Shown piece by piece: positions 31,034 through 36,157 of a stretch of DNA of 64,000 nt. Source of the stretch: Planctomycetota bacterium (GTDB lineage Bacteria > Planctomycetota > UBA1135 > UBA2386); the NCBI GenBank assembly GCA_965228735.1, contig OZ245838.1, forward strand, positions 1,728,001 through 1,792,000. The letters run 5' to 3'. Made by a program: the position numbers and the translations under genes. Positions within the stretch are counted from its first letter, which is position 1; the number at the start of each line of letters is the position of its first letter. Under the pieces are notes generated by a model. It made no database searches. It was not told the DNA's origin and was given only the letters and a program-made list of their open reading frames with translations.

Positions 31034-32323
31034 ATGAAGCGACTCCTCAACGGCGCCGCCGCGACTGCCGCGGCGCTCTCTCTCTCCGCGTACACCACCG
31101 CCCAGCAGTGCTACTCGCCGCAGAACCGCTGCTTCTCGTTCGCATCTCCCGGTGAAGAGGTCGAACGGCTCGACACCGGCCTGACGCTGCGATCCGATCA
31201 GCTGCGTATTACGGGCGACACCCGCCTGCGTTCCCGATTCGCCGAAACGCCGACGGACGCGCCGTACAACGCCAACGACAACCACAGCACGCGCACGCGC
31301 GTGCAGCTCGACTACACGGTCAACGACTGGGCGCGGGCGTTCGTGGAGTTCAACTACTCCGAGGTCTGGGCCGGCGCCGAGGGCTACTCCGACGCAGCGC
31401 CGTTCCAGAACGGCGCCAACGGCATCCTGTCGCGGCAGAACTTCAACGGCATCGCGCAGGCCTACATGCAGCTCGACGACGCGTTCGGGCTCGGCGAGAG
31501 CATCCGGATCGGCCGCAGCAACTACTTCCTCGCGAACGGCATGATCCTCGGGTCGTGCGACTTCCTGCAGTACCCGGGCGCCTTCACGGGTATCTGGGTC
31601 TCGCGCGGCTTCGGCGACGCCGGCTTCGAGGACGAAACGCCCTTGATCGAGGCCGAGGTCTTCGCGTTCGACAACTACGGTCCGCTGCAGAGCCAGCTGA
31701 CGGGCGGCGGCGAGCGCTACGCCGGCGCCACGGCGCGCTGGAACGCGTCCGAGAACGGTCCGATCGAGACGCTCAACGTCTACTACATGACGGGCACCAA
31801 CGACGCCGACGTGCGCCGCAACAGCGAGGACTGGTGGGCCGGCATCGAGGGCGTGGGCCACATCACGAAGAACCTCCGGTGGGAAGCCCAGTTCGCCAAC
31901 CGCGGCGTCGACATGGGTGCCGACGTGTCGGCCTACCGCGCGAGTTTGATCTACGAGTTCGACGAGCCGGCCGGCGGCTTCCTGCGCAACGTCTCGTTCA
32001 CGCGCACGGACAGCGAAGGCGCGCTGCACATCAACCCGGCCGACTTCAACTCGGCGGGCCTGCTGCACCAGTACGGCGGCATCTGGCGCAGCGACCTCGA
32101 CACCAACCAGCTGAGCGCGCAGTTCACGCCGGGCGGCGACTACGACTGCACGGCCACCGTGCTGACGCTCGACCGCGACGGCGGCGCGACCCAGCTCGGC
32201 GAGACCGAGTTCGACTTCCTCGTCGGCAAGATGTTCCGCGAGGGCCTGCACGTCGGCGCGGGCTACGCCGTCGACGACGACGCCCGTCAGGTCGGCTACG
32301 CTCAAATCACGCTCTACTTCTGA
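31034..32323 (+). CDS. Outer-membrane beta-barrel (alginate-export-like porin)
   Basis: Signal peptide; GDTRLRSR..TRTRVQLDY..QAYMQL..IRIGR pattern; C-terminal Phe (ITLYF). Confidence 0.8.
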   Translation: MKRLLNGAAATAAALSLSAYTTAQQCYSPQNRCFSFASPGEEVERLDTGLTLRSDQLRITGDTRLRSRFAETPTDAPYNANDNHSTRTRVQLDYTVNDWARAFVEFNYSEVWAGAEGYSDAAPFQNGANGILSRQNFNGIAQAYMQLDDAFGLGESIRIGRSNYFLANGMILGSCDFLQYPGAFTGIWVSRGFGDAGFEDETPLIEAEVFAFDNYGPLQSQLTGGGERYAGATARWNASENGPIETLNVYYMTGTNDADVRRNSEDWWAGIEGVGHITKNLRWEAQFANRGVDMGADVSAYRASLIYEFDEPAGGFLRNVSFTRTDSEGALHINPADFNSAGLLHQYGGIWRSDLDTNQLSAQFTPGGDYDCTATVLTLDRDGGATQLGETEFDFLVGKMFREGLHVGAGYAVDDDARQVGYAQITLYF

Positions 32324-32353
32324 TCCACCCCTGCACCCCCCTTGGAGAACCCC

Positions 32354-32719
32354 ATGAGCAACTCGTTCTGCGTCACGATCACCGAGTGCAAGAGCAACCC
32401 CGACAAGGCGACCGTCGGCTTCGTCGTCGCCAACGCTGCGCTCGGCAGCGAGAAGGACACGATGGTCTTCCTCAGCGCGGACGGCGTGTGGGCCGCCGTG
32501 ACGACCGAGATGGAGAAGGTCGAGGCCGGTGAGCCGTTCCTGCCGCTGCGCGAGCTCGTCCAGAAGTTCATCGGCGCCGGCGGCAAGGTCCTCGTCTGCA
32601 CGCCGTGCATGAAGAAGCGGCAGATCACCGAGGACATGCTCGTCGACGGCGCGACGCCGGCCGGCGGCGCCGCGCTCGTCGAGTGGCTCTCGAACGGCTC
32701 GCCGAGCGTCGGCTACTGA
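32354..32719 (+). CDS. DsrE/DsrF-like protein
   Basis: ATVGFVVANAA, VFLSADGV, GGKVLVCTPCMKKR; GGAG RBS upstream. Confidence 0.88.
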   Translation: MSNSFCVTITECKSNPDKATVGFVVANAALGSEKDTMVFLSADGVWAAVTTEMEKVEAGEPFLPLRELVQKFIGAGGKVLVCTPCMKKRQITEDMLVDGATPAGGAALVEWLSNGSPSVGY

Positions 32720-32729
32720 GAGGCCGACC

Positions 32730-33485
32730 ATGCTGAGCCCCGACGAACTCCGGGCAATCGAGCCTGCCACCGTCTTCGACGGCGGCGCGCTCGATTGCGG
32801 CTCCGGCCTCGTGCTGCTCATTCGCGAACGGATGACGGAGGTGCCGCCCGGCGCCGTCCTCGAGATGAAGAGCTTCGAGCCGACCGTCCGCGACGACCTG
32901 CCGCCGTGGTGCCGCATGGTCGGGCACGAGTTCCTCGGGGAGCTGCCCGGCGACGCGGCGCGGCAGGCGCGCTACTTCGTCCGCCGCGGCAGCGGCGAGG
33001 CAGCGCAGGAGGAGACCGCGGCGCTGCAGACCGACAAGGACCGCGCCCGGACCTACGAGTGGCGGCTGCGCGCCCGTTCGTCGGCGCCGCTCGTGACCAC
33101 CGTCTACTGCCGCAACTTCCAGTGGCAGGTCGGCCAACCCGCGAGCTTCGAAGAACGCGACGAGCATCCGTCGGCGGTCGAATCCGCGCTCGGGGCGCTC
33201 GCCGCCGATCTCGTGACGGGCTTCGCGGTCACGTGCTCGCGCGAGGGCCTCGAGGTCGACGACATCGAGCTCACCGCGAAGGGGCGGCTGCACGACGTGA
33301 CCGCGCACCTCGGGATCGGCGACGGCGACCCGGCGTTCGCGGCGATCCAGATCAAGCTGTTCGCGTCGACGTTCGCGGACGAAACCCGCGTGCGAGCGGC
33401 CTGGGACGCGACCGTCCGCCGCTCGCCACTCGCGTGCACGCTGCGGCGCGCCACCGAACTCACCACCGGCATCGCCATCGTCTGA
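32730..33485 (+). CDS. TusA-like sulfur carrier fused to an OsmC-like domain
   Basis: DGGALDCGSGL..DLPPWCRMVGH (TusA); HPSAVESALGALAADL..RRSPL (OsmC fold). Confidence 0.82.
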   Translation: MLSPDELRAIEPATVFDGGALDCGSGLVLLIRERMTEVPPGAVLEMKSFEPTVRDDLPPWCRMVGHEFLGELPGDAARQARYFVRRGSGEAAQEETAALQTDKDRARTYEWRLRARSSAPLVTTVYCRNFQWQVGQPASFEERDEHPSAVESALGALAADLVTGFAVTCSREGLEVDDIELTAKGRLHDVTAHLGIGDGDPAFAAIQIKLFASTFADETRVRAAWDATVRRSPLACTLRRATELTTGIAIV

Positions 33486-33497
33486 GGAGAAGAGAAC

Positions 33498-34649
33498 ATG
33501 TTCGACGTGACCCAGGTCGGCAGCTGGCCGCGCTCCCGTGACCTGCTGCGCGCGCTGCGCGACAAGCAGCAAGGTCGCATGACCGCCAGGGAGTTCGATG
33601 CCGTCGCCGACGGTGAGGTTCGGCGCTGTGTCGCCCATCAGGTCGACGCTGGCGTCGACGTCGTCGTCGACGGCGAGCAGCGGCGTGACAACTTCTACTC
33701 CTTCGTGACCGACAAGCTCGACGGCACGCGGCTCATGTCGCTCGCCGAGATGCTCGACACGGTCGAGGACAAGGCCGCGTTCGAAGAGATGCTGTCCACG
33801 CTCGACGTGCCGGCGTCCGCGATCCGCAACCCCACCTGCGTCGGCAAGCTGCGCCGCCGCGAACCGCTGGCCGTCGACGAGCTCAGGTTCGTGCAGCAGC
33901 TCACGGACAAGCCGGTGAAGATCTCGTTGCCCGGGCCCTACCTGCTGACGCGGGCGATGTGGGTCACGGCGCACTCGCGCGACGCCTACGACGACAAGAC
34001 CGCGATGGGCGACGACGTCGTCGACATCCTGCGCGCCGAGCTCACGGAGCTGCGCGACGCGGGTGCGGCGTTCGTTCAGTTCGACGAGCCGGTCCTCACC
34101 GAGATCGTCATGAGCGAGGAAGCCGACCGACGAACGTTCATGTGAGCCACCCTTGCTACCCGCCGTGATGCGGGTGCCGAACTCGAATACGCCGCGGAGC
34201 TGCTCAACCGGGTCGTCGACGGCATCGACGGGGTCCGGACCGGGCTCCACGTCTGCCGCGGCAACTGGAGCCGCCAGGAGGACGTTCTGCTCACCGGTGA
34301 CTACCGCGCCCTGCTGCCCGCGTTCACTGCGATGCACGTCGATCAGTTCGTGCTCGAGTACGCGACGCCGCGCGCCGGCGAGCTGGCCGTCGTGGGGCAG
34401 GCGCTGGCCGACCGCGAGCTCGGCCTCGGCTGCGTCAACCCGCGCACGGACGAAGCCGAGGACCCGGCGACGATCGTCGCGCGGGCCGAGGAGGCGCTCG
34501 CGTTCTTCCGACCCGAGCAGATCTTCCTCAATCCCGACTGCGGGTTCGGATGCTTCGCGAACCGATGCGTGAACGAGGAGGACCACGCGGCCGCCAAGCT
34601 GCGCTCGATGGTCGCGGCCGCGCGCGAGCTGCGGGACAGACACGGCTGA
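33498..34649 (+). CDS. Cobalamin-independent methionine synthase II (core MetE)-like zinc enzyme, probable selenoprotein (TGA at codon 216)
   Basis: VGSWPR, DGEQRR and VQFDEP before the TGA at 34143-34145; the same frame continues through HVCRGN, VLEY and NPDCGFG to a stop at 34649; 383 aa when read through. Confidence 0.88.
34143..34177 (+). promoter_or_regulatory. In-frame UGA plus bacterial SECIS-like hairpin
   Basis: GC-[bulged U]-ACCCGC / loop CGUGAU / GCGGGU-GC at 34155-34177; the loop starts 19 nt after the UGA and has G at position 2. Confidence 0.75.
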
Positions 34650-35251
34650 TGAGCGAGACCGACGAACCACAGGATCCACGCACGGTGCGTGCGCTGGCCG
34701 ACGCCGAGAGGCTCACGGGAACGCCGTGCGGCGGCTGCAGCGCCACGCTCTGCGGTCACGACGCCGTGTTCTCGCTCGTGCTGGGCTACAAGAACGCGGC
34801 CCGGTGCCTCCGCTGCATCGCGGCTCACATGCGCGAGCCGCTCGCGGATCTGCGCGAGCGCACGCTCGACTACGTCCGCCACCACGAGTGCTTCCTCGCG
34901 GCCTGGCATCGCGCCGGCGAACGCGAAGGCTTCGGGCCGGTCGAGCGCCCGGCGTGTCTGTGGGGTATCGCAGCCGCAGACCGGTCCGCGCTCCCCGCGC
35001 CCGCCGACGACCCGCCGGCGGCCGCGCCGCTTCGCGACGACGTCGCGAGCTGGGACGCCGGCGACATGGGCTGTGGCGACCTCGTGCTCGAACTGCGACT
35101 GCGCCTGCGCGAGCTGCCCCCCGGCGGCCTGTTCGATCTGATCGCGACCGACCCCGGCGCACCCGTCGACATTCCGGCGTGGTGCAACCTGACCGGTCAC
35201 ACGCTCGTGGCGCAGCAGCACCCGAGCTATCGCATCCGGCGGAAGAGCTGA
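34649..35251 (+). CDS. Cys-rich (Zn-finger-like) N-terminal domain plus TusA-like sulfur carrier
   Basis: TGATG coupling to the MetE-like stop; CGGC..CGH..CLRC..HHEC; WDAGDMGCGDL..DIPAWC..TGH. Confidence 0.85.
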   Translation: MSETDEPQDPRTVRALADAERLTGTPCGGCSATLCGHDAVFSLVLGYKNAARCLRCIAAHMREPLADLRERTLDYVRHHECFLAAWHRAGEREGFGPVERPACLWGIAAADRSALPAPADDPPAAAPLRDDVASWDAGDMGCGDLVLELRLRLRELPPGGLFDLIATDPGAPVDIPAWCNLTGHTLVAQQHPSYRIRRKS

Positions 35252-35254
35252 GGG

Positions 35255-36157
35255 CTACTTGTCCGGCTTCTTGCCCGCCGTGCTGCCCGCGCTCCCGGGC
35301 TTCCGGCCAGGCACGCTGCCCTGCCGGCGCAGGTACTGCTCGAGGGCCTGCAGGCGTTGGAACAACTGCGCGTTGTCCTGCTCGAGTTTCTGCAGCCGCT
35401 GCTGCACCTCGCCGGACGGCGGCGGCGGCTCGCGCGGCGGCAGGTCCGCCGCCTCCAGAAGCTGCAATGCGGCGGCAACCATGTTCTGAGGCCCGGACAA
35501 CAGCAATGAATTCTCGTTGCCGACGTTCCCGATGATCAGGTTGCCCGCGCCCTGGCCACCGGATTGCGCGAAGAACGGCCGCAACGCGTTGTTCGCGATC
35601 GCGGCGTTGATGTGTTTCGTGGCGCACGCGACCGTAACGTGCAACCGCAGGGTCGGCCGCGCCAGGACCTCCGCCGGTGACCGCTGCACCGCCCGGGTGA
35701 CGATCTCGCGACTCCGCGGCCCGTTCATCGACAGGACCTCGTAGACGCCCTTCGGCTCGTCGATCGGCACGAGCGCGAACCCGTACGACCACAGCACCCC
35801 GGTCAGCAGCTCCTCGCACCCATCGGCATCCGTGACGACCGGGATCTCCAGGTTCACGACCGGCCCCATCGGGCCCTGGGCCGCCGGCGCTGCCGGTCGA
35901 GCCCGCCCACGCCGCACGACCGCCCCGCCACCCTGCGCGAGCGCCATCTGACCGCCGTCGAACAGGATGTTACGCTGCAGGTACGCCGCACACCGGTCCA
36001 CGAGCTCGACGAGCTCGATCTCGCCCGCTTCGAACACGAACGGCGCGCGGTCCGCCGGCCCCTTCGCCGACTGGACGGCAGGATCCTGAGCGACGCCGGC
36101 GCACGGCGTCAGCAGCGCGCAGAGCACAATCCGGTGCACGATGGTGATCGGGTTCAT
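35255..36157 (-). CDS. Secreted protein resembling secretin N-terminal (N0/N1) domains, with no barrel
   Basis: Signal peptide ending AQ; KHINA..NSLLLSGP..LLEAAD pattern; coiled-coil tail. Confidence 0.55.
   Translation of the reverse strand: MNPITIVHRIVLCALLTPCAGVAQDPAVQSAKGPADRAPFVFEAGEIELVELVDRCAAYLQRNILFDGGQMALAQGGGAVVRRGRARPAAPAAQGPMGPVVNLEIPVVTDADGCEELLTGVLWSYGFALVPIDEPKGVYEVLSMNGPRSREIVTRAVQRSPAEVLARPTLRLHVTVACATKHINAAIANNALRPFFAQSGGQGAGNLIIGNVGNENSLLLSGPQNMVAAALQLLEAADLPPREPPPPSGEVQQRLQKLEQDNAQLFQRLQALEQYLRRQGSVPGRKPGSAGSTAGKKPDK

Follow-up and report, generated by a model that had tools for sequence, protein, structure and literature searches.

An apparently undescribed operon that pairs a MetE-like predicted selenoprotein with TusA- and DsrE-family proteins in a Planctomycetota bacterium

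The core methionine synthases MesA, MesB, MesC and MesD (with MesX) are described in passages of Price et al. (2021; PMC7857596; structure 3RPD) as single C-terminal MetE barrels without a folate domain, and MesD depends on an adjacent partner. Canonical MetE, known from E. coli, T. maritima (1T7L and 3BQ5) and N. crassa (4ZTX), has about 750 amino acids and the same catalytic barrel and zinc site. DsrE and TusA proteins are encoded together in the sHdr- and rDsr-associated relays treated in PMC11094781, whose text presents DsrE-to-TusA sulfane transfer as established for members of these families. The SAO system of Clostridioides difficile is, in the account of Haft and Gwadz (bioRxiv 2022.07.06.499078), a selenoprotein-centred neighbourhood with a CxxC-containing DsrE-like protein, SaoD, and transport genes. 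Here we describe a five-gene operon of a Planctomycetota bacterium in which a MetE-like enzyme gene with an in-frame UGA lies among genes for DsrE- and TusA-family proteins. It occupies positions 31034 to 35251 of a 64,000-nt stretch of contig OZ245838.1 (GCA_965228735.1), called the window below; operon coordinates are window positions. The system is real and apparently undescribed, and its enzyme appears to be a new selenoprotein family within the core MetE-like kind.

The host genome is a single contig of 7.19 Mb, 93% complete. The operon and its elements are as follows.

31034..32323, + strand: outer-membrane beta-barrel, AlgE/alginate-export-like porin, 429 amino acids; lineage-restricted accessory
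32354..32719, + strand: DsrE-family protein with C82-x-x-C85 and a near-invariant C6, 121 amino acids
32730..33485, + strand: TusA-like domain (C23 in CGSG, C61 in PxWC) fused to a Cys-less OsmC-fold domain, 251 amino acids
33498..34649, + strand: single-barrel MetE-like (PF01717) zinc enzyme, predicted selenoprotein, 383 amino acids
34143..34145, + strand: in-frame TGA, predicted selenocysteine 216
34158..34175, + strand: bacterial hairpin of the selenocysteine insertion sequence (SECIS) type, with a 6-bp stem and a 6-nt loop, G at loop position 2
34649..35251, + strand: second TusA-like domain (GCGDL C142, PAWC C179) with a Cys-rich N-terminal domain, 200 amino acids

An earlier interpretation made from the letters of the window (the sequence-only reading) had listed five co-oriented genes with gaps of 30, 10 and 12 bp, a 1-bp overlap and Cys motifs in every cytoplasmic product, and our check of the open reading frames agreed on all points. 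Genes 4 and 5 overlap in TGATG, and the motifs are CTPC in DsrE, DCGSG and PPWC in the TusA-OsmC protein, U216, HVC and DCGFGC..C in the enzyme, and GCGD and PAWC in the last protein. They are conserved beyond chance: C82 and C85 of DsrE in 79/79 sequences, C23 in 80/80, C61 in 81/81, C142 in 82/82 and C179 in 81/82. Rfam gave no match in the window, and neither a sigma-70 promoter match nor a + strand terminator was found.

A predicted selenocysteine in a MetE-like enzyme

The in-frame UGA of the MetE-like gene is very likely read as selenocysteine (Sec), as the sequence-only reading had supposed, because 67 of 74 genome loci have TGA here, with Cys in nearly all the others, a SECIS element is constrained behind it, and selA, selB, selD and tRNA-Sec are present. 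Counts of Sec come from these 74 loci and from 80 metagenome loci, two sets that partly overlap and whose related members are not independent. Six of the remaining genome loci have Cys at residue 216 and one is frameshifted there, and the metagenome loci comprise 42 with TGA and 38 with Cys; the suggested search for other members carrying Sec thus had a positive outcome. Among 120 database homologues, 119 have Cys at this residue. In the host genome selA, selB and selD scored over their cut-offs, and the host selD itself contains a TGA. Contigs from four of four public runs, which may include the source sample, cover the TGA codon and show no difference there, so the TGA is not an assembly error; the sole difference across the operon stretch was one base at 31419 in one run. 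With table 11, translation ends at residue 215, and the family is therefore easy to overlook.

The loop of the SECIS-type hairpin begins 18 nt after the UGA. Its folding energy is weak on its own (z between -0.67 and -1.89, the latter for a 45-nt piece). Among the 93 four-fold-degenerate sites of the enzyme gene, the five with the lowest entropy are codons 221, 222, 223, 225 and 226. All six stem pairs are retained in 60 and five of six in 7 of the 67 TGA copies, with a complete stem in 0 of 26 Cys copies. At least five pairs form in 41 of 42 TGA copies of the metagenome set, against 1 of 38 Cys copies. As judged from these alignments, the hairpin is under RNA-level selection restricted to TGA copies. 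Frameshifts within the enzyme gene occur in two metagenome-assembled genomes (MAGs; L079:7645-7647 and L050:7882), one of them exactly at the Sec codon, and are probably assembly errors. The host genome also encodes a YeeE/YedE-family transporter with an in-frame TGA (G000:C1:4851280-4851756; L194), a known type of selenoprotein.

A quick tree was built from 101 of 163 rows: every one of the 62 Cys rows, roughly half of those with Sec, and the window itself. All 39 sampled Sec rows form one clade with support 99, together with two groups of three Cys revertants. Going by record titles, Sec loci come from Planctomycetota, Verrucomicrobiota, Chloroflexota, Acidobacteriota, Gemmatimonadota, Calditrichia, Krumholzibacteria, Latescibacterota, Eisenbacteria, Fibrobacteraceae and Desulfocapsaceae, and they include that of a cultured carrier, Desulfopila aestuarii DSM 18488 (L062). 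A divergent Sec lineage (L175, also L163) has 58-59% identity and the same SECIS. Two genomes flagged as holding one TGA (G153 and G046) were rejected as Sec carriers, the TGA lying away from residue 216, where they have Cys.

Selenium supply does not explain which members have Sec and which have Cys, because selB is present in 197 of 201 genomes of the window's class, yet only 7 of the 61 class genomes with the enzyme use TGA. Profiling against the sel genes had been proposed as a check; run with selB, it does not discriminate. Nor is selenium specific to the system: Cys is found in many members, including those from genomes that utilise Sec. The genomes of Cys revertants, which are incomplete MAGs, had selA in 5/5 tested.

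The enzyme matches PF01717 along its length (119.5 bits, over cut-off), while PF08267 stays under cut-off, and with 383 amino acids it is without MetE's folate-binding N-terminal half, as first noted. No NCBIfam r20 model scored over its cut-off, including every methionine-synthase model: TIGR01371, for canonical MetE, gave 97.8 of the required 930 bits, PRK04326 183 of 406, PRK00957 99 of 258 and PRK09121 80 of 392. The comparison with core synthases covers these family models and the MesD structure 3RPD. The predicted model (pLDDT 90.1, pTM 0.91) matches the catalytic barrels of MetE and MesD with TM 0.63-0.76 at 16-22% identity (19-20% to 3RPD). The zinc ligands H251, C253, E287 and C348 are invariant in 120/120 homologues; in the amino-acid pocket, E60 and D196 are present in 120/120 and S9 in 117/120. 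These seven residues correspond to MetE residues named in the text of PMC7857596. The intact pocket makes homocysteine or methionine (or a selenium analogue of these) the likely substrate.

Residue 216 sits in an insertion that has no counterpart in MetE or MesD in the alignment. It is Cys or TGA in 93/94, 80/80 and 119/120 sequences of three sets, and this invariance points to a catalytic residue whose role is without counterpart in those enzymes. By topology, U216 would lie on the catalytic face, since its flexible insertion follows the strand whose end is D196; residues 201-220 have low pLDDT and are the least confident part of the model. The Sec clade has extra Cys residues, C352 in 39 and C357 in 29 of 42 TGA copies. 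A complex prediction for a Cys-encoded homologue pair of enzyme and TusA-OsmC, with zinc, scored 0.24, under the 0.32 mark, and was set aside.

Carrier proteins, neighbourhood and porin

The DsrE protein matches PF02635 with 49.8 bits (cut-off 22.7) and has no NCBIfam hit, nor a hit to the SaoD model. In an alignment to archaeal 3MC3 (E 0.013) its C82 falls on the Cys of that protein, and C6 is conserved in 76/78. The TusA-OsmC protein scores 20.1 bits with Pfam TusA, under cut-off, and 28.9 bits with OsmC, over cut-off; its C23 aligns with active C19 of E. coli TusA, and the structure model of a homologue matches OsmC/Ohr folds. What we take to be the two catalytic Cys positions of OsmC/Ohr, the first checked against 2OPL, are D160 and S232 here, and among 95 fused copies only 3 and 4, respectively, have Cys there. 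A peroxidase role for the OsmC domain was rejected because both cysteines are lost; the domain is probably an adaptor or binding subunit.

The last gene product matches PF01206 with 37.4 bits (cut-off 28.6). Both TusA-like domains hold two invariant Cys each, and have CGSG or CGDL in place of the CPxP motif; PRK00299 gave 24 and 36 of 78 bits. CPxP is called characteristic of TusA in PMC11094781, at least in the parts that treat the motif. The Cys-rich N-terminal domain of the last protein (C27xxC30, C53xxC56 and C81) is optional, being found at 24 of 94 loci and conserved in 24/24 where present; it is probably zinc-binding and resembles unnamed clusters of 81-98 amino acids. At other loci a stand-alone TusA of about 80 amino acids, upstream of DsrE, replaces the last gene. 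Of the proposal that DsrE and TusA act as persulfide carriers, the folds and the active-Cys alignment stand; the missing CPxP and the lost OsmC cysteines do not fit, and for these reasons persulfide transfer is inferred here. TusA domains of the CG type were also seen fused to PqqD-radical SAM, an unassigned 421-residue protein, MerT-like and SDR domains (database proteins P0235, P0215, P0242 and P0135).

Of 174 loci, the 111 whose upstream flank reaches at least 2.5 kb were used to compare gene neighbourhoods; they include 69 Sec and 41 Cys loci. DsrE is present at 65 and TusA-OsmC at 64 of the 69 Sec loci. The four Sec loci without a nearby DsrE have one elsewhere in the genome (4/4), and the whole trio was found in 3/3 checked. 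At loci holding both genes, DsrE and the enzyme share a strand in 106/106 cases, and in 105/106 DsrE precedes the enzyme by no more than 1.6 kb. The core is flanked by a second TusA in 97/106, mostly upstream of DsrE. Twenty distant class loci (41-58% identity, Cys), chosen from 61 hits for long contigs, all keep DsrE and TusA, and in 12 of the 20 a TusA domain is fused in frame to the enzyme; such fusions also occur in database proteins P0245, P0249, P0258, P0265 and P0267. This check therefore bore out a coupling of carriers and enzyme across phyla: gene order, fusions and co-loss support a conserved, functionally coupled unit, whose core is TusA, DsrE, TusA/OsmC and the MetE-like enzyme. 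Conservation of the full five-gene order did not hold up, for it recurs at only 3 of 74 loci (L025, L034 and L040) and the second TusA is usually upstream of DsrE.

Sporadic neighbours are sulfur or selenium genes: rhodanese, which some Cys loci have instead, the putative selenate-binding protein TIGR04553, and cysteine desulfurase with TusE. At L184:2261-3157 a putative selenate ABC substrate-binding protein (TIGR04553, over cut-off) follows a Cys-type operon. The related loci L007, L009 and L016 have TusE/DsrC-like, HmcF/DsrK-like iron-sulfur and cysteine desulfurase/Sec-lyase-like genes 1-5 kb downstream of the enzyme. At L175:88-10162 the genes metK, ahcY and fhs and one for DsrE precede the Sec enzyme, and an Rv1680-like gene for a substrate-binding protein (SBP) follows it, an arrangement that hints at a methyl-cycle role.

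The window's porin had no Pfam hit; a homologue hits PF13372 weakly, and 30 of 30 porin hits in Atlas are Alginate_exp (score 0.97). It occurs in 26 of the 201 class genomes, and 25 of these 26 carry the enzyme, which has an overall frequency of 61/201. A comparison of the lists by hand placed it within about 4 kb of the enzyme on one contig in 20 of the 26; at 14 loci its orientation was the same as that of the enzyme in 5 and opposite in 9. Some loci have other outer-membrane genes in its place. The porin thus belongs with the system in this lineage, as claimed, and is a real, tightly linked accessory but not a core component. Eight distant class loci (L094, L096, L098-L100, L103, L104 and L107) have a DcaP-like porin and a transglutaminase-like secreted protein upstream of the core, and at 4 of 74 loci (L017:4465-5532, L020, L022 and L072) a third, unclassified outer-membrane-like gene with no Pfam or NCBIfam hit precedes it.

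A convergent 300-residue gene at 35255-36157 of the window (- strand) ends 3 bp past the last stop of the operon; it has a weak Secretin_N match, under cut-off, and no link to the operon was seen.

Proposed mechanism and rival readings

We consider it about an even bet (probability roughly 0.5) that the operon encodes a relay-coupled homocysteine group transferase, in which the carriers exchange a sulfur- or selenium-linked group with U216 and zinc-bound homocysteine takes or gives an alkyl group. The group would most plausibly be methyl. A small sulfur or selenium compound would enter, in this lineage via the porin; DsrE, with its CxxC, would load or reduce a TusA cysteine, TusA would exchange the group with U216, and zinc-activated homocysteine would then accept or donate the alkyl group. 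That a second thiol or selenol is served by a dedicated chain is suggested by three features: the extra residue, invariantly Sec or Cys, the fusion to TusA and the CxxC of DsrE. In one version, which is our own, a U216-Se-S-CH3 intermediate would methylate homocysteine, and TusA and DsrE would carry off the sulfane sulfur left behind; in the reverse, methionine or selenomethionine would be demethylated onto a persulfide. More specific and somewhat doubtful is the proposal that the enzyme is the first MetE-fold selenoenzyme and, via Sec-S-CH3, moves methyl between a relay of protein-bound sulfane sulfur on one side and homocysteine/methionine (or the selenium counterparts) on the other. If true, uncultured bacteria of some ten phyla would, independently of folate and B12, either build methionine out of methanethiol, dimethyl disulfide or methylselenol equivalents or release these compounds.

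Several observations weigh against a relay-coupled transferase. At 20 of the 41 Cys loci there is no DsrE or TusA nearby and a stand-alone OsmC instead, with acyl-CoA-dehydrogenase-like and SBP-like genes beside the OsmC in 13 of these 20; one further Cys locus has none of these. Six Sec-to-Cys revertants keep this second module and gave a DsrE match in 0/6 genomes, which are incomplete MAGs. From these 20 Cys loci and six of six revertants it follows that, as far as gene content indicates, the carriers are not obligatory for the enzyme family. Two invariant Cys per TusA without CPxP, and the CxxC of DsrE, would fit a plain disulfide-reducing chain equally well. The porin is present in only 25 of the 61 class genomes with the enzyme and, among taxonomically named records, only in Planctomycetota. 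Finally, co-occurrence with MetH, on the analogy of MesD, would not exclude methionine synthesis.

The family thus seems to have two alternative partner sets that share an OsmC-like domain, and five Sec loci hold both modules. The alternative module is seen at L041:2973-5503 and at many other loci, and the N-terminus of its SBP-like protein has no obvious signal peptide. Its pair of acyl-CoA-dehydrogenase-like and SBP-like folds presumably resembles DszC and DszB.

The host genome has MetH and a metX-like gene beside one of three pyridoxal-phosphate Cys/Met enzymes, and replacement of missing methionine genes by the operon was therefore rejected. Because MetH is present, the enzyme is not needed as sole synthase, although it could be a B12-independent backup to MetH, as for MesD, which co-occurs with MetH in 75% of cases according to the text of PMC7857596. 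A MetH match was found in 57 of the 61 class genomes with the enzyme. That the operon does something other than ordinary methionine synthesis, as had been asserted, is unproven, given that three homocysteine-binding residues and four zinc ligands are intact. For the same reason, methionine synthesis by a core enzyme that uses a new donor is still a serious rival.

Such a fifth core family, with a donor that bypasses the carriers (a methyl-cobamide, or a methyl group bound to a partner in the way proposed for MesX) while TusA and DsrE only keep U/C216 or the zinc site reduced, strikes us as rather unlikely. Characterised core enzymes make methionine (PMC7857596, in the passages on these enzymes); the homocysteine pocket and zinc site are complete, the enzyme is the sole PF01717 gene of its genome and so could back up MetH without B12, Sec locus L175 is near metK, ahcY and fhs, and 4 of the 61 class genomes, incomplete MAGs, lack a MetH match. 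However, its scores are far under the core-synthase cut-offs (PRK04326 and PRK09121 above), no methionine-pathway genes are among the recurring neighbours, and an invariant Sec/Cys with TusA fusion is hard to square with maintenance only. CoFeSP (PF03599), the Wood-Ljungdahl corrinoid iron-sulfur protein expected with MesB or MesC, had no match in the 93% complete host genome, and the controls did match; MesX (PF08908) is absent among the recurring neighbours, and the search for it in 41 family genomes gave 0 matches, with none in the controls either. Epoxyalkane:coenzyme M transferase, a zinc enzyme of the MetE fold, alkylates a thiol without being a methionine synthase. A catabolic or detoxifying enzyme likened to it by these general properties, acting on an electrophile or on methyl-arsenic, -mercury, -selenium or -tellurium delivered by two-Cys carriers, we regard as improbable. 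It would account for C352 and C357 of the Sec clade, for the acyl-CoA-dehydrogenase-fold enzyme of the alternative module and for related TusA domains fused to MerT-like (under cut-off) and radical-SAM proteins, and the CxxC DsrE recalls SaoD of the organometallic SAO system (bioRxiv 2022.07.06.499078, as outlined there). On the other hand, S9, E60 and D196 are retained, SaoD gave no model hit, and no ars, mer, alkene monooxygenase or coenzyme M genes are among the recurring neighbours.

Pure sulfur or selenium trafficking, in which homocysteine or cysteine occupies the zinc site and its persulfide, S-sulfo or seleno adduct is made or resolved by the relay for assimilation or salvage without alkyl transfer, seems slightly less probable still. 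TusA, DsrE and the rhodanese neighbours are sulfane/thiosulfonate carriers, the porin is of an anion type and L184 has its putative selenate-binding protein; however, most class members use Cys although selB is nearly universal there, with no tie to selenium supply, and we know of no MetE-fold enzyme that performs S-S chemistry at a zinc thiolate. The probability that the TGA is a true stop, arising from a pseudogene or a sequencing error, in a cluster arranged by chance, is minute. The hairpin alone is not a strong folder and Sec216 is a prediction, but the recurrent TGA/Cys codon in both locus sets, the SECIS constraint in TGA copies only, the Sec machinery, the agreement of four runs and the equal conservation of both halves of the gene stand against it, and the pseudogene reading was rejected.

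Comparison with described systems

No description of the system was found in the literature searched, in line with the earlier suggestion that it is undescribed; candidates in further papers or supplements could include it. Table 1 of PMC13188914 (May 2026), with 119 prokaryotic selenoprotein families including ten of the Haft-Tolstoy type, has no PF01717 or MetE-like entry, and a term search of PMC12013277 gave no hit outside the references. New in the present analysis are the test of SECIS constraint at synonymous sites, the finding of unlinked trios and of co-loss, and the linkage of the porin across the class. A widespread selenoprotein family would join the catalogue, in a zinc alkyl transferase fold outside the usual redox selenoproteins, and operon, fusions and co-loss link the TusA/DsrE carrier families to the fold of methionine synthases. 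The cultured Desulfopila aestuarii and the natural Cys versions make the system testable.

The SAO system differs, in the account cited above, by its MerB-like lyase, ABC subunits and thioredoxin-like genes, none of which is present here, and in this operon Sec resides in a MetE fold. The alternative module is nearest to the uncharacterised clusters of the Rv1679/Rv1680/Rv1681 type (NF049984, NF049985 and NF049973): its best hits, 385 of 600 and 200 of 400 bits for the Rv1679 and Rv1680 models, are under cut-off, as are all others, a TusA copy hits the Rv1681 model weakly, and the module is not at the window's locus. DsrE/TusA relays resemble the operon in that the first TusA Cys and C82 of DsrE align with active Cys residues; they have CPxP, going by the descriptions in PMC11094781, where the proteins here have CGSG and CGDL and a second invariant Cys per carrier, and the acceptor is sHdr, DsrC or MnmA there and a MetE-fold enzyme here.

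The enzyme is half the length of canonical MetE, without the folate-binding barrel and with no split-MetE partner nearby, although the barrel fold (TM up to 0.76) and zinc site are shared. It is closest in kind to the Mes core synthases, with the same four zinc ligands and three homocysteine-binding residues as given in the sections of PMC7857596 on them, and it bears on a question from that work, namely which non-folate, non-cobamide donors feed such enzymes. However, it has about 20% identity to 3RPD, falls under all model cut-offs and has an extra insertion with an invariant Sec/Cys, and its partners are TusA, DsrE and OsmC-like proteins, whereas those of the Mes enzymes are MesX or corrinoid proteins.

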